Of a stretch of 40,467 nucleotides of DNA, positions 2,706 to 40,467 are shown piece after piece. The translations under genes and the position numbers were made by a program. The notes beneath the pieces were generated by a model, which had not been told where the DNA came from, did no database searches, and saw only the letters and a program-made list of their open reading frames with translations. How positions within the stretch are numbered: position 1 is the stretch's first letter; the number at the start of each line of letters is the position of its first letter. The DNA comes from a virus (taxonomy: Duplodnaviria > Caudoviricetes): the IMG/VR virus record IMGVR_UViG_3300037657_000136, positions 1-40,467 of that record. One strand, 5' to 3'.

Positions 2706-4694
2706 TTAAATCGGGAAACTGAACTGTCCAAATGCGCCCTTAGCGTTGGCAGCCGTAAAAGCTGCCGCAGCCTGATCCTTATAGATGTTCACCGTATCGG
2801 ACCCGGCGGCCAAAGCGAACATCCCAGGGGTGGCCACCAGCCCCCCGTTATCAGTAACCCGGCATGGCCCCTGATAATTAGCCCCAAACACAGCCAGCGC
2901 GGCAGTAAATGGCAACGTAAAGGTGAAGCCGGTGGTATCGCTGACCCCCTCGATATGAAATATTACCGTCACTTCCCGGCCCCTTACCCGGTAAAAGATA
3001 TTTGCGGCAGTCAATGAAGCAAACCCGGTGATGGTGGAAACCGCACCATATTGCACCCACTCTTCGCAGCCGATATTGTCATACGCCTGGTAGGCGTCCG
3101 CCAGGGCGACGCTGGCTATAATGCCGTCCGCATTATAAGGGGTGCCCTCGGTGCCAAAGTTAATGACTGTGTTTCCGGTGAACCGGTTGTGCTGTAAAAC
3201 ATTGAGCCCGGCGGAATCATCGACATAAATCCCGTACCAACCGGACCCATCCAAGACGTTGCCGATGATCTTGTTGCGCAGGGAATCACCCTGGTTGGCC
3301 ACCAAGCACAGCAGTCCGCCGTCCCCGGCCGGAGCGAACGGGTGAGTCGGATCGCCGCAGTTGGTGATGTGGTTTAATGCGATCAGGTTGTCAGATCCGC
3401 AGATGTCGATACCCCAACTGAGATGATTCTTAATGCGGTTATTGACGATCTGACACTTATCGCCCCAGAAGACGATCCCCTCACTCTGGTTGTCGTGAAT
3501 GTCGCAGTCGGACACCACCATCCGGCTCAGTCCGGTCACCCCGCCCCAGATGCCGACATGGGCGAACTGGGTGATCTCCATCCGCTCAACCGTCAGCCCG
3601 GTGTAGCCTGCCGCGTGTTCGATGCCGCCGCAACGGTTCTGCACCGCCGACCGCCACGGTAACCCGGTGAAATCCCCCCGCAGGATGAAATCGTGCAGGT
3701 TGACGCCGTCATCCTGGATCGACAGAGCTGCGGCGGAAAACGCCGTCAGGTCTCCTCCAGGAGGCACCACCATCTTGATCTCGGAGTACCCCCGTGAACC
3801 GGAGAGTTCTTTGCAAAGCGAGGTTCCGGCCAGGAACGTGATCACCCAGGTCGACAGGTACTTCTTGGGCAGATAAACCCGGGGGGACATGGTGATGGCC
3901 TGGGAGAGCGGGACCCAGTCATCGGTCACCAGGTCGCCCTTGGCCCCGAACCATTCCGGCACCACATTGGTCAAACCGATCAGCTTGCCGGCCCCGGTAC
4001 AAGCGAATATCTGGTAACAACCGTCGGCAATCGTGTACCCGGTGATGTCAATTTCCGTGGTAATGGCACATGGCGTCCCGAAGAACAGGGCCCCCCCGCC
4101 AGGGTTTGCCGCCAGGGCCGCCGCCAGGGCCGCGCCCGTATAAACCTCGCCCGTCATGTAAGACTTGACATCGATCCATCCTACGTGCGATAAAGTCGTT
4201 GGCAACGCCGGGGAGGCTTCCAGAGCGGTTCCGGCCGCATTCCACCGCAGGTAGGCCGGCGCGCCCGTAAGGTTGACGGGAAGCTGCAACGGCGTCGAGC
4301 TGAAAGTTTCTGGCGCCACCGGAGCCCGATCTATCATGTCTGACAACTGCTGCGATATTTTAACGCCGCGGTCCAGTGCCCGCTCCAACGTCTCCGTAGG
4401 CAATAAACCGGCCTGGGGCAGGGCCAGTTCCTGGGTCAGCGACAACACGATCTTGATCACCACCGTGGAGCCGGATGGCGGGGGGGTTACGAAGGTGACA
4501 CTGCCCCCGTTCTCAACCAGCACCCCGCCTACGCTATAGTCCACTCCCAGGACCTGGAGAACTTCCACCCCCAACACATCCCGGAGGTAAACCACCAGGT
4601 CGTTGTCGTCAAAAATCATGTTGGTATACGGAAAAACCGTCTGGATATCATCACCGGCATAACTCCAGCGATTCACGGGGTTGCTCACTGTCAT
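2706..4694 (-). CDS. Tailspike/tail fibre: T7 gp17-like N-terminal anchor plus right-handed beta-helix (putative depolymerase)
   Basis: N-terminal Y.GD....FP.....DL.VY anchor motif; V.PEWFGAKGD..TDD pectate-lyase-3-like start; parallel beta-helix repeats. Confidence 0.85.
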   Translation of the reverse strand: MTVSNPVNRWSYAGDDIQTVFPYTNMIFDDNDLVVYLRDVLGVEVLQVLGVDYSVGGVLVENGGSVTFVTPPPSGSTVVIKIVLSLTQELALPQAGLLPTETLERALDRGVKISQQLSDMIDRAPVAPETFSSTPLQLPVNLTGAPAYLRWNAAGTALEASPALPTTLSHVGWIDVKSYMTGEVYTGAALAAALAANPGGGALFFGTPCAITTEIDITGYTIADGCYQIFACTGAGKLIGLTNVVPEWFGAKGDLVTDDWVPLSQAITMSPRVYLPKKYLSTWVITFLAGTSLCKELSGSRGYSEIKMVVPPGGDLTAFSAAALSIQDDGVNLHDFILRGDFTGLPWRSAVQNRCGGIEHAAGYTGLTVERMEITQFAHVGIWGGVTGLSRMVVSDCDIHDNQSEGIVFWGDKCQIVNNRIKNHLSWGIDICGSDNLIALNHITNCGDPTHPFAPAGDGGLLCLVANQGDSLRNKIIGNVLDGSGWYGIYVDDSAGLNVLQHNRFTGNTVINFGTEGTPYNADGIIASVALADAYQAYDNIGCEEWVQYGAVSTITGFASLTAANIFYRVRGREVTVIFHIEGVSDTTGFTFTLPFTAALAVFGANYQGPCRVTDNGGLVATPGMFALAAGSDTVNIYKDQAAAAFTAANAKGAFGQFSFPI

Positions 4695-27754: not shown

Positions 27755-27997
27755 TCACAGGGTTATATTTTTGGTAGCTTCTTCCTGGCCCCCGCCATTA
27801 CCCTTATATGGGTTCGGCACCAGGTCATCCAATGACAACGCCCCCTGGGCGTCATCCAGGATAACCTTGATGCTGGTCACCGAAAGTCCCCGTTGCCCTT
27901 TCAGATAACGGGTGATGCTGGGCACCGGCAGGTTAAGCCTCTTGGCATAGGCGCACTTTCTTTCGTTGAGGTTCGCAATATGATCTCCGAGTCTCAT
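27755..27997 (-). CDS. cro: Cro-like HTH repressor
   Basis: AYAKRLNLPVPSITRYLKGQRGLS HTH, divergent from cI. Confidence 0.75.
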   Translation of the reverse strand: MRLGDHIANLNERKCAYAKRLNLPVPSITRYLKGQRGLSVTSIKVILDDAQGALSLDDLVPNPYKGNGGGQEEATKNITL

Positions 27998-28006
27998 AAT
28001 TTGGAC

Positions 28007-28060
28007 AATTACCATACAGCAATTTTAAGTGCAAGAGATAAAATTACCGCACGTCAAATT
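28007..28060. promoter_or_regulatory. OR operators (AATTACCATACAGCAATT 28007-28024; AATTACCGCACGTCAAATT 28042-28060) with divergent promoters
   Basis: Two related imperfect palindromes between cro and cI, matching two sites at 29460-29510. Confidence 0.7.
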
Positions 28061-28081
28061 AATTTAGATTATTCTTGGATT

Positions 28082-28768
28082 ATGAAGGCGTCGGACCGGG
28101 AAAAGTTAGACAAGGAAATTGACAATATATTGATATTTATCAGTAATTATATTAAGTCAATTCCAGATGTTGAAAAGAAGAAGGCAAATGAATTTGCTGA
28201 ATTGTGCGGAGTAGGGCCTGAAAACATCACCCGCTATAAAAGATATGGCGAATCAACCGCAGAGGGCGGAAGACACGATCCCCATCTAAGGACATTTTAT
28301 AAGATTCTACGGGGCCTATTGGGAAAACCGCCCTTTGCAATTGACGACAAAGAAAACCATATTTCCGTCCCCTTGGTTGACGGCCGCATTGCCGCCAACC
28401 CCGCCGGCCATATCCCCGGCGACGCCATCGAGTCTCAGGTCTGGCTCCCCCGCTGCGAACTCCACGGCCGCCACAACCTGGTGGCCGTCCGCCTGGCCCC
28501 CGACGCCGATTCTATGGAACCAGCTCTGCACCCTGGCGACCTGGTAATCATCGACCGCAACGACCGCGAACTTACTCCCGGGGGCCTCTATGCTGTCCGC
28601 CTTCCCGACCAGGAATCTTGCACCATAAAACGCTTGCAATTAATCCCCGACCAAAAGATAATTTTATTATTATCCAATAATCCAAAATATGAACCCCTGC
28701 CCGTGAGCGACCATGAACACCTTATTATTGGCCGCGTAATCTATTCCTTGACGAATTGGCTAAAATGA
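28082..28768 (+). CDS. cI: CI-like repressor (HTH + S24 peptidase)
   Basis: HTH EFAELCGVGPENITRY; DSMEP.L.PGD.VIID and TIKRL catalytic Ser/Lys; IIGRVI C-terminus; likely leaderless ATG at 28082. Confidence 0.9.
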   Translation: MKASDREKLDKEIDNILIFISNYIKSIPDVEKKKANEFAELCGVGPENITRYKRYGESTAEGGRHDPHLRTFYKILRGLLGKPPFAIDDKENHISVPLVDGRIAANPAGHIPGDAIESQVWLPRCELHGRHNLVAVRLAPDADSMEPALHPGDLVIIDRNDRELTPGGLYAVRLPDQESCTIKRLQLIPDQKIILLLSNNPKYEPLPVSDHEHLIIGRVIYSLTNWLK

Positions 28769-34360: not shown

Positions 34361-35439
34361 ACCTCATCGAAATGATCGGCCAAGAGCGGATTGATAAGGG
34401 CATGTGGTGGTCAAAGGACTGCGGCCTACAACTCGTCGAGGGCTGCACCAAAGTCTCGCCCGGCTGCGATAACTGCTGGAGCCTGACCGCGGCCAACATG
34501 CGGCGGTTTAATCCGAACCCCAAAACGGCGGCAAGGTATGAAGGGACGGTCTGGAAAAATCCCGGATTGCCCCCGTACTGGACCGGCCAGGTCAACCCCC
34601 AATGGGACGATCTGGACAAGATCGGCCGGAGCCGGACCCCCAAGGTCTATACGTTCTGGAATGACTTGTTTCATCCGGGAGTAGGCCCAAATTTTCAAAA
34701 TAATGTCATGTTCAGAATTAAGGAACACCCCGAACATTTCTTTATCATTTGCACCAAAAGGCCAGGGCGAGCTCTGGAATATTTTACCGGGCAATATGCT
34801 CTTGGCGGCTCTCCCTTTCAGAATGCATCTTTTATAAAAAACCTCATGCTCATGACCACCGCCGAAAATCAGGAAATGGCGGACCTGCGCCTGCCGGTCC
34901 TCTTGCAAATTCCGGGGGTGATGCACGGGGTGAGCGTGGAGCCGGGGCTGGAGGTCGTGAATTTAAATCCATACTTGCGCCCCAATCCAGGTTGTTCCTT
35001 TGTAAATCCAGAAGATGGCACCTGCGATCATCCTGACACACCAGACCCAGAATGTCATATCGGGTCCTGGTGTGCACCAGTTAACCACGAATATCGGGGC
35101 CTCGATTGGGTAGTTTGCGGAGGAGAATCAGGCCCCAACGCCCGCCCCATGCACCCGGATATTCCCCGGAAGCTGCGGGATGATTGCGTGGCGGCTGGGG
35201 TGCCGTTTTTCTTTAAATCCTGGGGGAAGTGGGCGCCGGGGTCCGATGCCTCCGTGAAAAACCTCTGCGTTTACAATGACGGCCGCACCGTGGAATTTAC
35301 CCGGGAAGCTATTCTGGCAGAAGAAAAGCGCAGCGGCTTGGCGCACAATGATTTCGCCCCGACCTTAATGTCCCGCGTCGGCAAAAAAACCGCCGGCCGC
35401 GCCCTGGACGGCAGGACCTGGGATGAGGTGCCAATATGA
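34357..35439 (+). CDS. DUF5131 / phage Gp37-Gp68 family protein (radical-SAM-like)
   Basis: GCTKVSPGCDNCW, DLFH, TKRP.R, S.EP.L, DWVVCGGESGP.ARPMHP, PFFFK.WG, GR.LDGR.WDE.P. Confidence 0.92.
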   Translation: MNLIEMIGQERIDKGMWWSKDCGLQLVEGCTKVSPGCDNCWSLTAANMRRFNPNPKTAARYEGTVWKNPGLPPYWTGQVNPQWDDLDKIGRSRTPKVYTFWNDLFHPGVGPNFQNNVMFRIKEHPEHFFIICTKRPGRALEYFTGQYALGGSPFQNASFIKNLMLMTTAENQEMADLRLPVLLQIPGVMHGVSVEPGLEVVNLNPYLRPNPGCSFVNPEDGTCDHPDTPDPECHIGSWCAPVNHEYRGLDWVVCGGESGPNARPMHPDIPRKLRDDCVAAGVPFFFKSWGKWAPGSDASVKNLCVYNDGRTVEFTREAILAEEKRSGLAHNDFAPTLMSRVGKKTAGRALDGRTWDEVPI

Positions 35440-35687
35440 CCACCAAAGACATAATCGCAGTCCTAACTTTCAAAGGTTTCACCTATACCGCTATTTCTGA
35501 CTGGCAAGACCGCAAAGGGGTAACACATTTCCTCTATAAAGGCGATTGCTTTTTTAGAATTTACAGGACTCAGGTAGAGGTTCGCTTTCCCCAGACCAAA
35601 AGCGAACTCCACCTTGAAGGCAATCTTATCGGGCCTTTCAGGGACGGCGTAATGTTCGACCTGGATAGCCGGGAGATGGTACGATGA
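35436..35687 (+). CDS. Hypothetical protein
   Basis: Coupled start and stop. Confidence 0.6.
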   Translation: MTTKDIIAVLTFKGFTYTAISDWQDRKGVTHFLYKGDCFFRIYRTQVEVRFPQTKSELHLEGNLIGPFRDGVMFDLDSREMVR

Positions 35688-35830
35688 CTACCTATCTCCC
35701 CTACCACTACTGGATTAGCGTCACCGACGCCCACCAGTGGGTGCAATGTGGGCAACTACGGCCCTTCCCGGCCCCCTGCATGATCCCCCTCCTGGCGGCC
35801 CTGGCGAGGTTGACGGTGCGGGGGAATTGA
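35684..35830 (+). CDS. Small hypothetical protein (48 aa)
   Basis: ATGA coupling, GGAG RBS. Confidence 0.4.
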   Translation: MTTYLPYHYWISVTDAHQWVQCGQLRPFPAPCMIPLLAALARLTVRGN

Positions 35831-35839
35831 GAGGATGGA

Positions 35840-36181
35840 ATGAATCTGACCAAACTTATAAATGAGGAACGTCCAAAAGTCATTCCGGTAGGATGGCAAC
35901 CGGTGCCTAATTACCCAGATGGGGCTATCTATCGCTTCACGCTATCTGGCATGAGCATTTTGTACAGTCTATCTGAAACAGAAGATGGTAAAAAATACCA
36001 CCATGTCAGTTTTTCCCGCCAACACCGCCTCCCTGGTTGGGAGGAAATGCGGGATGAACTGTATAGCCTGCCATGGCTCAACAAGAACCGGTAAATTTTT
36101 ATGACTTTGCCGCCGAAAAGCCAGTACATATCCTCTGCTGGCCCGAATAAAAACGTAATGCACTGGTGGCAAGAAATTTAA
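35840..36181 (+). pseudogene. HVS..R.P.WEEM family phage protein interrupted by in-frame TAA at 36092
   Basis: Family motif continues past the stop: R*IFMTLPPKSQYI....NVMHWW. Confidence 0.65.
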
Positions 36182-36191
36182 GGAACCCCCT

Positions 36192-36449
36192 TTGACAGCC
36201 CCCCAACCCAAAAGCCGCCTCGCAACAATAGCCGAAGCCGCGGCCAGACTCTCCGTCCACCCGAACACCGTCAAAAACATGATGCGGGACGGCCGGGTGC
36301 TGGGGGTGAACATCAACCCCGGGGGCAAGCGCCCCACCTGGCGGATCGTGGCGGCCAGCCTGGAGGCGTTCCGGGTTGAGCCCCTGGGCGCCGAGGTCCT
36401 GGAGGAGCGGTTGAGGGAAGCGGAGATTGAGAGGAGGTGCGGGTGGTGA
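36192..36449 (+). CDS. xis: Excisionase-like HTH protein
   Basis: TIAEAAARLSVHPNTVKNMMRDGRV...WRI; upstream of integrase. Confidence 0.75.
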   Translation: MTAPQPKSRLATIAEAAARLSVHPNTVKNMMRDGRVLGVNINPGGKRPTWRIVAASLEAFRVEPLGAEVLEERLREAEIERRCGW

Positions 36450-37279
36450 AGGTTAATTCTGATTTAATAAAAAGGTCTCTTGCCAAACGTCACGAAAAAG
36501 ATTTCTTTGTTACCGAATGCAAATCGGGCCCCACCACAACAGCCGCAAGAGGGGAACTCAGAATATTTGATGCAATAGCGGTCAAGAAAAGCTGGACCCA
36601 GCCTTGCGTAACTATCTATGAAATAAAGATTTCCAGAAGTGACTTCTTGTCTGATATAAAATGGCCAGCCTATAAAAAATATTGCAACCGGCTATATTTC
36701 GTTTGTCCGAAAGGATTAATAACCCCCGATGAAATTAGTGACGGAGTGGGGTTGATTTATTATAATCCAGAAAACCAGGCACTTCATACAACAAAGAAAG
36801 CGTTATACCAAGACAATCCTCTGCCGACAAATGTCTTTTATTATATTTTAATAAATAAATTAGAATCAGATCGGCACCCATTTTTTAGCAAAAAGCGTGA
36901 ATACATTGAAAGGGTTTTAGCAGACAAAGAAGCCCGCCTCAGTTTGGACTTTAGATTTAAGTCTTACATGGTGAACAAGTTAGCAACGCTTGAAGAAGAG
37001 TCAGAGAGATTAATCAAAGAAGTTGAATCCTATAAAATATTTTATAAAGAATTACAACAAGTAAAAGAATGTCTTAGGCAGAATGGAATAAATCTTGGCT
37101 GGAATAGTCATAACCTTGATAATGAAATTAAACGCCTGCGGGGCGTGACCCTTATTCCCGGAGAAATAGACGGTGCCCTGAAGGTTATCTCCCGGGAGGT
37201 TGAGATCATTAAAAAATTCTATGCCAGAGATGGAGATGTCGAAATAAAAGTTGAAACCCCCGGAGAAATCGCGGTATGA
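36446..37279 (+). CDS. PD-(D/E)XK nuclease, MmcB-like, with C-terminal coiled coil (AT-rich insertion)
   Basis: D.......YEIK.SRSDF..D.KW..Y..YC...YFVCP.GLI...E.....GL. Confidence 0.75.
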   Translation: MKVNSDLIKRSLAKRHEKDFFVTECKSGPTTTAARGELRIFDAIAVKKSWTQPCVTIYEIKISRSDFLSDIKWPAYKKYCNRLYFVCPKGLITPDEISDGVGLIYYNPENQALHTTKKALYQDNPLPTNVFYYILINKLESDRHPFFSKKREYIERVLADKEARLSLDFRFKSYMVNKLATLEEESERLIKEVESYKIFYKELQQVKECLRQNGINLGWNSHNLDNEIKRLRGVTLIPGEIDGALKVISREVEIIKKFYARDGDVEIKVETPGEIAV

Positions 37280-38313
37280 CTTCACTTGCCATGCGCCTAT
37301 TCCGCCGCCCCCCCAAAACTCGCCCCCTGCCCCCGGAGTCCGAGTGGACCTGGTACGCCGAACTGGACCGCAAGACCCGGATCAGCCTCAAGACCGCGGA
37401 TGAAAAGCTGGCCCGGAAATCCTACGCCAAGCTCAAAAAGCTCTACCTCACCCGCAACCTGGCGATCCTGGAGGGGCGGCCGCCGACAAAACGCCTGGAG
37501 GATTTCGCCGAGGAATACCTGGAGTGGTCCTTCCAGACCAAGCGCCCCTTTACCACTCAGACCGATTCACAGGCCCTGCGCCGGGCGCTCCGGTACTTCG
37601 GCCCGGCAACCCCTATCGGCAGTATCACCCGCCGCCAGGTGGACGCCTGGCTCGCCTCCATGGGCCAGGAAGTGAAGCGGGTGTCGGCCAACACCTGGTT
37701 CCGGCATTTCAAGGCGGCCATGTCAAAAGCCGTGGATTGGAAGTACCTCAAGGAGAACCCCTGCCAGGGGGTCAAGCAGCTCGCCGTCGATGAACCCTTG
37801 CCCCGGTATCTCACCCAGGAAGAGTTCGCCCGGATTCTGGCGGCGGAGCCCTCCCCCGACTTCCGGCGCCTGTGGGAAATCTACCTGAGGACCGGCTGCC
37901 GGCGGGGGGAAATCCTCCAGCTCACCGGCCAGGACATTAATCACCAGGCCATGACCTTCACCGTGACGCGCACCAAAAACCGGCGAGCGCTGCGGGTCCA
38001 GATGACCCCGGAGATCGCCGCCCTGTTCCGGTCCATCCCGGTGCAGGTGGGCCGGTTGTTCCCCTGGACTCTGGACTACGTGACCCACCGCTTCCAGGCA
38101 ACGGCCCGGGCCGCCGGGGTCCAGTGCCGCCTCCACGACCTGCGCCACACCTACGGCTCCTGGATGATCCAAGCCGGCGTCCCCCTCCGGGTAGTCCAGG
38201 GCCTCATGGGGCACCGCAACAGCAAAACCACCGAACGCTACGCCTGGGCCAGCGAAGCACAACAGGCCGAGGCGCAAGGGAAGATTAAGATTTCAGGAGA
38301 TCATAATGAGTGA
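37276..38313 (+). CDS. int: Tyrosine recombinase / phage integrase
   Basis: TGCRRGE (R), TKN (K), HDLRH (HxxR), GH...TT.RY (H, Y). Confidence 0.95.
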   Translation: MTSLAMRLFRRPPKTRPLPPESEWTWYAELDRKTRISLKTADEKLARKSYAKLKKLYLTRNLAILEGRPPTKRLEDFAEEYLEWSFQTKRPFTTQTDSQALRRALRYFGPATPIGSITRRQVDAWLASMGQEVKRVSANTWFRHFKAAMSKAVDWKYLKENPCQGVKQLAVDEPLPRYLTQEEFARILAAEPSPDFRRLWEIYLRTGCRRGEILQLTGQDINHQAMTFTVTRTKNRRALRVQMTPEIAALFRSIPVQVGRLFPWTLDYVTHRFQATARAAGVQCRLHDLRHTYGSWMIQAGVPLRVVQGLMGHRNSKTTERYAWASEAQQAEAQGKIKISGDHNE

Positions 38314-38485
38314 CGGTAACCGTCAGATATTAAGCTCAGAAATAGAGCAAATAATCAACAAGGCCTACCATCGCGGGTTTGCCGATGCCCTCAAGTTGGC
38401 AAGTCAAACCTTTAACGGCATCATCGAAGATCTCAAAAAAACCAGTGCGGAAGCGCAGGGGAAAATTAAGATTGGGGAGGAATGA
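38306..38485 (+). CDS. Small hypothetical protein (59 aa) ending SAEAQGKIKIGEE
   Basis: AGGAG RBS, ATG overlapping the int end; below the ORF-track cutoff. Confidence 0.65.
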   Translation: MSDGNRQILSSEIEQIINKAYHRGFADALKLASQTFNGIIEDLKKTSAEAQGKIKIGEE

Positions 38486-39033
38486 TGAGAGAAGGCCACT
38501 GTCCTTTTTGCGGGGCCGAGAAAGATATAAATTTCGGCACTGAGGGAATTTATTATAAATGCGGGACGTCTCATTGGGGAAACCAAGATGTTAGGCTTAC
38601 AGGTGTTCGGCAGTGGCGTTGCTATAAGGCGGAAGGAGAACAGTTGAAGGCCCAAATCCAGAAACTACCAGAGACCATATTATCTCAAATCAAAAAGCAA
38701 GAAGAAACCAAAAATGTGCCTGGTGCACAGGCATTTAATAATGGACTGGCGATTGCTGGCCATGTATGCAATGACATCTTCCACCGTTCAGAGTTCTCAA
38801 ATCTCTTTGCGCCCACATCGCGCCCGCAAGCGCGGAGGGAGATTGTGATGGAAATTTATATCAAGTGTAATTGCGGAAACGAGATAGGCGGAACTATTTT
38901 ACCGCCACCCTTTGCATTTATCTGTAAACATTGTGGAAAAACTTATGAAGGCCGCGTGATAATGTATGTAGAGAAGCCCAGCGCGCCCGCAAGCGCGGAG
39001 GCCCAGGGGAAAATCAAGATTGGGGAGGAATGA
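38482..39033 (+). CDS. Hypothetical Zn-ribbon protein, apparent fusion of two cassettes (internal RBS+ATG at 38848)
   Basis: CPFC...C and C.C...C..C motifs; ends SAEAQGKIKIGEE. Confidence 0.65.
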   Translation: MMREGHCPFCGAEKDINFGTEGIYYKCGTSHWGNQDVRLTGVRQWRCYKAEGEQLKAQIQKLPETILSQIKKQEETKNVPGAQAFNNGLAIAGHVCNDIFHRSEFSNLFAPTSRPQARREIVMEIYIKCNCGNEIGGTILPPPFAFICKHCGKTYEGRVIMYVEKPSAPASAEAQGKIKIGEE

Positions 39034-39269
39034 TGAGCACAGGAAGGGATAATATGTTTCTTTGCAAATGGATTAGCCTAGATTGTGGTTATCGCAGTCC
39101 TGGTGGCCTATGTACCGACCCAGAGGCGAAAGGGGATTGCCACCCTCTATCAAGCGGCTGGGAAGGTTATTGCCATAGAATGAATAACCCCCTGATACCT
39201 GATCAGCAAATTCCGCCTGCGCCCACATCGCGCCCGCCCGCCGAGACACCCCCAAAACAAAACAAGTGA
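39030..39269 (+). CDS. Cys-rich hypothetical protein
   Basis: GGGGAGG RBS, ATGA coupling; stop lies in the attP hairpin. Confidence 0.6.
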   Translation: MMSTGRDNMFLCKWISLDCGYRSPGGLCTDPEAKGDCHPLSSGWEGYCHRMNNPLIPDQQIPPAPTSRPPAETPPKQNK

Positions 39270-39290
39270 CCAATTATTAAGAGTCACTTG
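39254..39290 (-). terminator. Intrinsic terminator built from the tRNA anticodon-stem 5' strand
   Basis: CAAGTGAC-12 nt-GTCACTTG followed by TTTTGTTTT on the minus strand. Confidence 0.65.
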
Positions 39291-39314
39291 CTCTACCAAT
39301 TGAGCTAACGGCCC
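39276..39314 (-). tRNA. 5' half (nt 1-39) of tRNA-Lys(CUU) = attP core; not a complete tRNA
   Basis: GGGCCGTTAGCTCAATTGGTAGAGCAAGTGACTCTTAAT: acceptor 5' strand, full D-arm, anticodon CTT at 34-36; no T-arm follows. Confidence 0.88.
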
Positions 39315-39332
39315 GGATGCAGAACAGGCTTG

Positions 39333-39361
39333 AATATACTGGGCTTAGGAGATTTTGTCAA
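39333..39361 (-). promoter_or_regulatory. sigma70 promoter driving the tRNA 5' half
   Basis: TTGACA (39361-39356), 17 bp spacer, TATATT (39338-39333); start site ~12 nt before tRNA nt 1. Confidence 0.8.
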
Positions 39362-39447
39362 GCGGGAACGATCAAACAAAATCGACCAAAAACACACAAA
39401 AGTGGGCGTGGTGATCGCATGTTCGCGGACACATCGCGGTCGCATTC

Positions 39448-39789
39448 TCACCGTAAACCGACCTTCGTTTTCCCCTTATCGCTAAACAAATCCCTAATGT
39501 AATCCTTTAATATCTGGATCTTCGTCTCCATGATATCAGCATAGGTTCGCTGGGCGACCTGGTTCTTAGCAATCTTCCCTTTGGCAGTCAAGGGAAGGGC
39601 CTTAAATTCATCCTCGGTAAAAAGGGGCGGTGCCGGACGGGGCTCAGGATTAACGTCCGGGACCGCTTTCTCCCCCAACGGCGGCAGAACCATCTTTTCG
39701 TGCAGGGAGCATCCCGAGGCCGATAAAGACATCGCGCATAGCAGCATCATCACCGGCAGTAACCACCTGGTCGATTTTTTGATTTTCAC
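39448..39789 (-). CDS. Outer-membrane spanin (Rz1-like lipoprotein)
   Basis: Lipobox SASGC, Pro-rich segment, overlaps the Rz 3' end. Confidence 0.7.
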   Translation of the reverse strand: MKIKKSTRWLLPVMMLLCAMSLSASGCSLHEKMVLPPLGEKAVPDVNPEPRPAPPLFTEDEFKALPLTAKGKIAKNQVAQRTYADIMETKIQILKDYIRDLFSDKGKTKVGLR

Positions 39790-40015
39790 TGGCCTGCACC
39801 TCCCTGAATTTTTTGGCGGCCTCCAGGTCCTTAATCTCCGCAGCCTGTTTGTAAATCTTGGCCTGGGCCTTGATCCCGGCCTCCTGGAGTTCCCGAATTT
39901 CCTTCTCGTAGGCCGGCTTATCGAACCAGTTATATTTGATGTACAGGCCGCCGCCGGCCAGCAACGAAGCCAGAAGCACCCCCACGAGAATCTTGGTGAA
40001 AATTCCGGTGAACAT
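39650..40015 (-). CDS. Inner-membrane spanin (Rz-like)
   Basis: N-terminal TM followed by coiled coil. Confidence 0.7.
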   Translation of the reverse strand: MFTGIFTKILVGVLLASLLAGGGLYIKYNWFDKPAYEKEIRELQEAGIKAQAKIYKQAAEIKDLEAAKKFREVQASENQKIDQVVTAGDDAAMRDVFIGLGMLPARKDGSAAVGGESGPGR

Positions 40016-40018
40016 GCA

Positions 40019-40117
40019 TCACCCCCAAATCAAGCGAATCAGACCATAAATGGCAATCGCCACCACCACCACTACCGCGGGCAAAACGATGTAGTCGAAT
40101 TTTTCAGTGACCTTCAT
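40019..40117 (-). CDS. Small TM peptide (32 aa)
   Basis: MKVTEKFDYIVLPAVVVVVAIAIYGLIRLIWG; ATGA coupling. Confidence 0.5.
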   Translation of the reverse strand: MKVTEKFDYIVLPAVVVVVAIAIYGLIRLIWG

Positions 40118-40248
40118 TGGATTCCCCTCAGAAAATACAGGGCTAACACCCCCAGCACAATTATGGCGACGTTCAAGGGATGCCAGCGGGTCTTGGTGGC
40201 CTCGTTTTTCAGGACGCGTTGCTTTAGCCAATACTCATGCGTGTTCAT
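40114..40248 (-). CDS. Small TM protein (44 aa)
   Basis: GGAGG RBS; MNTHEYWLKQRVLKNEATKTRWHPLNVAIIVLGVLALYFLRGIQ. Confidence 0.5.
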   Translation of the reverse strand: MNTHEYWLKQRVLKNEATKTRWHPLNVAIIVLGVLALYFLRGIQ

Positions 40249-40467
40249 CTGATCCTCCTTCCGGCTTCGGCCCCCGGCGGCCAGGTGGCCTGGAACTCTC
40301 CCCCGGTGCCATGGTGCCCAGCATTTCGGTGTAGGTGCGTTTGCTGAATTGGCTCACGGCGAGGCCACCAGCGCCAGCGTAAATGATCGCTGACAGTAGC
40401 TTCACCGTGGGTTCTGTCAATCCAAATTTCAATATGAAAATATCATAAACCGATCCGGCGAGGGCAA
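40235..40467 (-). CDS. Putative holin, 3' part (same ORF as 1-236)
   Basis: In frame with the ORF starting at 236 once the 127-bp overlap is merged; ends ...GGSDEHA*. Confidence 0.6.
   Translation of the reverse strand, partial: ALAGSVYDIFILKFGLTEPTVKLLSAIIYAGAGGLAVSQFSKRTYTEMLGTMAPGESSRPPGRRGPKPEGGSDEHA
40341..40467. repeat. Terminal 127-bp direct repeat (copy 2)
   Basis: Identical to 1-127. Confidence 0.95.

Follow-up and report, generated by a model that had tools for sequence, protein, structure and literature searches.

What is a promoter followed by only the 5′ half of a tRNA-Lys(CUU) gene doing on a phage genome, and where would the transcript that it starts come to an end? We addressed this question in the virus record IMGVR_UViG_3300037657_000136 (Duplodnaviria; Caudoviricetes), analysed as a whole (40,467 nt, hereafter the window), which is circular, with a 127-nt terminal repeat closing the circle. 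The window encodes a terminase, a major head protein, a CI-like repressor, an excisionase-like protein, a tyrosine integrase, an amidase and an Rz-like spanin. The repressor points to a temperate life style, and the phage genes lying on either side of the tRNA-half site indicate the unintegrated form. As set out below, the site is probably the attP of this temperate phage, in which a promoter and the 5′ half of tRNA-Lys(CUU) are followed by a predicted terminator whose hairpin takes one of its arms from the tRNA half.

A 5′ tRNA half facing the integrase gene

Promoter, leader, tRNA-Lys(CUU) nt 1–39, hairpin arm and T tract were all located exactly as the original prediction had described them, which confirms an attP-like site at 39254..39361, on the minus strand and facing the integrase. 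The features of the site and of its gene setting are the following (position, strand, description):

27893..28768, plus strand: CI-like repressor (Peptidase_S24; phrog_4)
36192..36449, plus strand: excisionase-like HTH protein (HTH_17; phrog_66)
37276..38313, plus strand: tyrosine integrase, 345 aa (PF00589, PF13102; phrog_1), pointing toward the tRNA half
39219..39235, minus strand: direct-repeat pair 41 nt from the crossover, putative arm-type sites on the integrase side
39254..39262, minus strand: T tract (8/9 T) right behind the hairpin, predicted intrinsic terminator
39263..39290, minus strand: hairpin; 5′ arm 39290–39283 (tRNA nt 25–32), 3′ arm 39270–39263 (phage sequence)
39276..39314, minus strand: tRNA-Lys(CUU) nt 1–39, identical to the Desulfobaccales gene
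39277..39283, minus strand: anticodon loop, nt 32–38, putative 7-bp crossover region and limit of host identity in L161, L165 and L160
39315..39326, minus strand: predicted 5′ leader, same as the leader of the intact L034 tRNA, its start placed from the −10 spacing
39333..39361, minus strand: predicted sigma-70-type promoter (−35 at 39361–39356, 17-nt spacer, −10 at 39338–39333)
39424..39439, minus strand: direct-repeat pair, putative integrase arm-type sites of the promoter-side arm, a repeat that recurs in relatives
39448..39789, minus strand: Rz-like spanin, the final lysis gene upstream of the promoter (phrog_1267)

A copy of the promoter-side arm repeat also lies ~117 nt before the start of the tRNA in L003, L023, L161 and L168, and the repeat precedes intact tRNAs in L002, L034, L046 and L055. 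ARAGORN detected no whole tRNA in the window, an Rfam search of 36000–40467 returned no tRNA (three chance-level matches only), and the complete cloverleaf with T arm and acceptor end that a functional phage tRNA gene would have is absent from the window.

The integrase gene, oriented against the tRNA half, ends ~1 kb from it, compared with a gap of 80–400 nt in several relatives. Within this interval, the last codons of the integrase (38266–38292) recur at the ends of two downstream ORFs of 59 and 183 aa (38444–38489 and 38992–39037), and arm-site-like repeats recur between the integrase-end copies (38808–38838, 38979–39001 and 39218–39237); the region looks like cassette-like accretion. A 79-aa ORF (39030–39269, plus strand), for which no family match was found, has its stop codon inside the phage-side arm of the hairpin, on the opposite strand.

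The probable target gene and its host

A search with the 39-nt core, proposed at the outset as a way to the host tRNA-Lys(CUU), returned exact matches at 69 loci of the genome contig collection, nearly all of which continue as full tRNA-Lys(CTT) and many of which are titled Desulfobaccales, Desulfobacca or uncultured deltaproteobacteria. In the order to which genome G004 belongs, 67 of 83 genomes match the core within 3 mismatches. Judged by these sequence matches, the host of the phage would be a Desulfobaccales bacterium. An arm repeat of the phage type is found at −117 to −119 in five of the 69 loci with an intact tRNA. Over 116 nt, L034 and the window share 90% identity, and their leaders are identical.

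In unoccupied genomes, the tRNA-Lys(CUU) gene sits after a conserved gene block. It had been suggested that integration would place 'any downstream operon' under the phage promoter, but in Desulfobaccales the gene stands alone with its own hairpin behind it: each of the three host loci folded has a hairpin of −17 to −21 kcal/mol with a T-rich tail directly behind the tRNA. Across 72 loci scanned with ARAGORN, tRNA clusters appeared in five (from Margulisbacteria, Acidobacteria and an unassigned record), and L063 has an additional tRNA ~570 nt downstream.

Several side observations concern the same gene. The contig G016:C26 (L271) is the related phage record L003 and comes from the same assembly as an intact host tRNA-Lys (G016:C7), making L003 and G016 a possible phage–host pair. 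Two intact tRNA-Lys(CUU) copies occur in G007 (G007:C14:30269 and G007:C19:48286), with near-identical element-type upstream DNA, and two in G008 (C17 and C22), reflecting either duplication or mixed strains. More distant integrases (25–28% identity) lie downstream of intact tRNA-Lys(CUU) genes, facing the tRNA, in L017, L046 and L063 (0.2–1.3 kb), and also in L245 and L253, which probably makes this tRNA gene a target for different element families on its two sides.

Integrated junctions in relatives of the phage

The original prediction took the site for a 5′-half, or reverse, attP for tRNA-Lys(CUU) with a crossover in the anticodon loop, and the relatives bear this out, with both junction types present: an intact tRNA behind a phage-type promoter, and a host promoter with its 5′ half running into a hairpin that faces int (L014, L153/L154, L061 and L034). 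Identity to the host stops at nt 38 in L161, L165 and L160, which would place the crossover in the 7-nt anticodon loop, as in attP sites of the anticodon-loop (site A) kind.

At L014, a 5′ half occupies the native host locus, with the same five upstream genes as in unoccupied genomes; it stands behind a different host promoter lacking arm repeats and is followed by a 9-bp borrowed hairpin and a T tract, beyond which lies an intact convergent integrase (56% identity). Both ends are preserved in G007:C19, where an intact tRNA behind a phage-type promoter lies 25.7 kb on from a decayed half, and in L061, where a relic of 1.8 kb that includes a remnant of the integrase occupies the native locus. 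These two loci have the 5′ fragment upstream of the intact gene and in the same orientation. The displaced halves of L153, L273, L274 and L061 have accumulated 2–7 changes, with an altered −35 box in L153, as expected of unused sequence.

We also considered the integrase relatives as a group. A convergent Lys(CUU) or Thr(CGU) 5′ half lies downstream at 11 of 18 distinct loci (at least 38% identity and at least 150 bits, with L073 and L167, the same locus, counted once), and two of the other seven have less than 30 nt of downstream DNA. Relatives in viral_contigs were found by an alignment-based search, whereas a single-sequence scan found none; the virus records G001–G003, all incomplete, showed no integrase. 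The genomes searched contained no integrated copy of the phage itself, and no second att end appeared in the incomplete genomes G004, G005 and G006 or in L034. In four DNA runs, contigs were interrupted at the shared tRNA core, and none was tied to a host junction of the phage.

Two tandem tRNA-Thr(CGU) 5′ halves (positions 3695 and 4610, minus strand), ~900 nt apart, accompany a single integrase in L178. In viral contigs with more distant integrases (L078, L100, L116 and L148), convergent 5′ halves of Thr UGU, Thr CGU or Val UAC genes lie downstream, which suggests that many members of this integrase group may share the reverse geometry.

A predicted terminator built from the tRNA half

The hairpin of the window has the structure of an intrinsic terminator, with an 8-bp stem containing four G-C pairs and then a run of 8/9 U. 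Its fold has a z score of −5.0, with none of 200 shuffles as stable. When the 40 nt downstream were shuffled 300 times, an 8-bp stem with a T tract never arose (p = 0.003); among 4044 phage windows of 40 nt, one other place had such a combination. The bare 28-nt hairpin reaches only −9.6 kcal/mol, and G-U pairing could lengthen its stem into the U tract. A consensus scan, the kind of terminator prediction envisaged at the outset, does not call the hairpin, because its loop is long (8–12 nt) for a scan with a limit of 8. A free-phage RNA of ~60 nt had been anticipated, a size that fits the length without the leader, but the RNA predicted to run from ~39326 to the U tract would measure ~72 nt.

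We then compared 22 junctions (15 Lys and 6 Thr in the main test, plus L297). Eight borrow the tRNA stem at p < 0.05 (the window, L168, L162, L014, L163, L023, L165 and L167), two do so weakly (L153 and L274), eight have an unrelated hairpin of their own with a T tract (L003, L195, L273, L170, L160, L173, L297 and one L178 site), and four lack a hairpin terminator (L161, L164, L174 and the other L178 site), with near-copy rows (window/L168, L163/L023 and L014/L153) leaving fewer independent cases than these counts. The borrowed stem with T tract was thus seen at p < 0.05 in 8 of the 15 Lys junctions, and a borrowed stem in none of the 6 Thr junctions; L078, L100 and L116, with distant integrases and Thr 5′ halves, matched no junction pattern and are uncounted. 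The borrowed form occurs in three registers, in which differing 3′ arms pair with different parts of the same tRNA strand, and in the integrase tree five of the six members of the window's clade have it, as does a second clade. In a swapped-tRNA control, the stem fell to 3 bp for the window, L168, L162 and L014, the four junctions for which this control is informative; for L163, L023, L165 and L167 it is uninformative because the D-stem strand is common to tRNAs.

Expectation that related integrases would also have a 5′-half attP with a complementary arm was borne out in part, the half being present in 11 of the 18 loci and the arm in several, but not in L161. In L161, the closest relative (94% integrase identity) and the sixth member of the window's clade, the promoter is the same, yet the interval from att to int contains neither a hairpin nor a terminator-like site, a loss on the integrase tree. 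Together with L164, L174 and one L178 site, L161 marks the terminator as dispensable.

Of 14 junctions measured, 11 have the integrase-side arm repeat 40–42 nt from the crossover; the distance is 51 nt in two others and 66 nt in the last. We infer from this a fixed gap that reflects a phasing constraint of the recombination complex and into which the stop signal usually has to fit, so that borrowing the tRNA strand probably saves space. Seven of the eight own hairpins begin within 13 nt of the crossover, in a test that omitted eight of the borrowed-stem rows, so that the two designs may not be mutually exclusive, and the own hairpins of L273 and L160 also fit the 40–42-nt gap.

A promoter of host-like type

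The promoter of the site is the best of 8 promoter-like matches in 35000–40467, with a score of 11/12, while shuffles of the same region gave 4.4 ± 2.0 promoter-like matches of any quality. The element promoter predicted to serve the restored gene has consensus form in the site and is also predicted in front of intact tRNAs with arm repeats. When the host gene upstream was used to build a tree of the 29 loci at which it matched over 200 aa within 4 kb, the window's promoter type was characteristic of one clade of 11/29 rows (support 100/99), the promoter classes in this comparison being patterns defined after inspection of the data. The phage therefore seems to bear the promoter type of its likely host clade, which may either have been copied from the host or have been left there long ago by an element. 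A scatter of this type over the host tree as repeated relics was ruled out, since the type marks a single clade.

The original prediction envisaged a regulatory promoter swap. Since the native promoter of the most similar host clade belongs to the same sequence type as that of the phage, the swap would be like for like, contrary to that proposal. Swaps between promoter types do occur when elements enter other lineages, as in G007 and L061, where the displaced host promoter and the element promoter differ in sequence type.

Proposed mechanism and alternative explanations

In the mechanism that we propose, the integrase would exchange strands within the 7-nt anticodon loop and join the phage promoter and 5′ half to the host 3′ half, keeping the tRNA expressed from a like-for-like promoter, and the displaced host promoter with its 5′ half would come to face the integrase gene head-on. 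The hairpin and U tract would then stop the transcript heading into the integrase gene. In the free phage, the same hairpin would stop the transcript of the phage promoter, whose product would change from a dead-end short RNA in this form to full tRNA in the lysogen. A 'self-assembling switch' had been put forward, but attP already contains the entire hairpin, and integration restores it without change at the junction with the host promoter, which argues for a state-independent insulator instead. Taking the tRNA strand as the 5′ arm is a likely way to fit a stop signal into the 40–42-nt gap. Retroregulation of the lambda sib kind was ruled out here, as integration does not separate the hairpin arms.

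Other readings of the same site can be weighed against this one. The site could be a true reverse attP whose complementarity is a by-product of recombination, through dyad symmetry of the core or template-switch copying, with the T tract acting as a DNA-bending or host-factor site. We regard this as rather unlikely: while the complement is in register around the anticodon loop in L165, L167 and L274, in the window, L168, L162 and L014 it lies 7 nt out of the core register, and the similar T-rich run that follows almost all junction types comes where the hairpin ends, be it a borrowed or an own one, whereas the arm sites keep a fixed distance. Such a reading would also be compatible with the missing hairpin of L161, but less so with the eight junctions at which an unrelated hairpin precedes the T tract. 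That the site is simply a decayed phage-encoded tRNA gene, not tied to integration, is hardly credible, since its ordinary-looking promoter, leader and tRNA start are followed in all relatives by a break at nt 38–39, beside a convergent integrase, and since the integrated junctions at the host locus in L014 and L061 contradict it.

A regulatory device, in which the phage promoter changes how much tRNA-Lys(CUU) the lysogen makes or how the gene is controlled, or in which the 72-nt RNA is itself functional, appears distinctly improbable. The −35 and −10 boxes are conserved among the phage relatives, an element-type arm and promoter persist at the native locus in L034 and L273, and promoter types were exchanged in G007 and L061, all of which could be expected of such a device; against this stand the confinement of the window's promoter type to one host clade, with its like-for-like swap, the lack of an operon downstream of the host gene, the decay of the displaced halves and an RNA fold that differs between relatives. 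In a broader version, the integrase family would serially overwrite the host tRNA-Lys(CUU) promoter, and the free-phage 72-nt RNA would be a regulator or a decoy for tRNA-Lys-cutting defence nucleases. Nucleases of this kind exist, and in the predicted fold the RNA would expose the lysine anticodon at the end of a stable stem. Serial overwriting is visible in the data as relic promoters at the native locus in L034, L273 and L061, the relic of L273 having itself been displaced later; the two parts taken together have, in our estimate, a comparably low probability. We thus favour an attP with an insulating terminator.

Relation to known integrative elements

Reverse-orientation tRNA integration is a rare, known class of which this phage is a real and well-supported member. 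Zhao and Williams reportedly described reverse-orientation tRNA-integrating elements in 2002 (J Bacteriol 184:859). For recombination on the 5′ side, Krupovic et al. 2019 refer to that work (PMC6563490), and Islander lists 159 islands with a 5′ fragment among 3919 (PMC4383910 Table 1). With these elements and islands the phage shares a tyrosine integrase, a tRNA target, a displaced 5′ part and restoration of the gene from the element copy; the window itself holds the tyrosine integrase and an attP 5′ fragment identical to the host gene. Unlike the Islander 5′-fragment islands, the present case offers a free phage attP and a family of relatives in Desulfobaccales, with a borrowed-stem terminator and a fixed 41-nt spacer that the accessible portion of the Islander report does not mention.

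The canonical anticodon-loop (site A) tRNA attP, found in 2083/3919 Islander islands (PMC4383910), resembles the present site in its 7-nt anticodon-loop crossover and in arm-type repeats on both sides; the usual elements instead carry the 3′ part and retain the host promoter. The archaeal pTN3-like integrases are described by Badel et al. 2021 (PMC8371274) as using the 5′ half of a tRNA gene as attB, with the tRNA expressed from the integrase promoter, an arrangement said there to be seldom met in bacteria. The likeness lies in the 5′ half as attB and in a recombinant tRNA made from an element promoter, and the difference in the promoter used: there it is that of the integrase, whereas here the integrase lies outside the site and faces it, a separate host-like promoter is present, and in the window the restored tRNA would not be expressed from the integrase promoter.

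A literature search did not find a borrowed-stem terminator, a weak absence since Williams 2002 and Zhao and Williams 2002, with their supplements, may describe such terminators; the available parts of PMC1635311 and PMC12884075 held nothing further on reverse integration or terminator detail. The borrowed-stem terminator is apparently an undescribed and dispensable design detail, kept in several relatives, not all.

Reverse-orientation elements must supply the promoter of the restored tRNA and silence a strong host promoter aimed at their own integrase. The Desulfobaccales family shows both solutions in a comparative series, namely a host-like promoter and a terminator in the fixed gap of the recombination site, with the stop signal built either from a hairpin of the element's own or from the tRNA half. 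This is a neat design detail of a known class and no new system; it explains the variable tRNA-Lys(CUU) upstream regions in Desulfobaccales and gives the phage a likely host.
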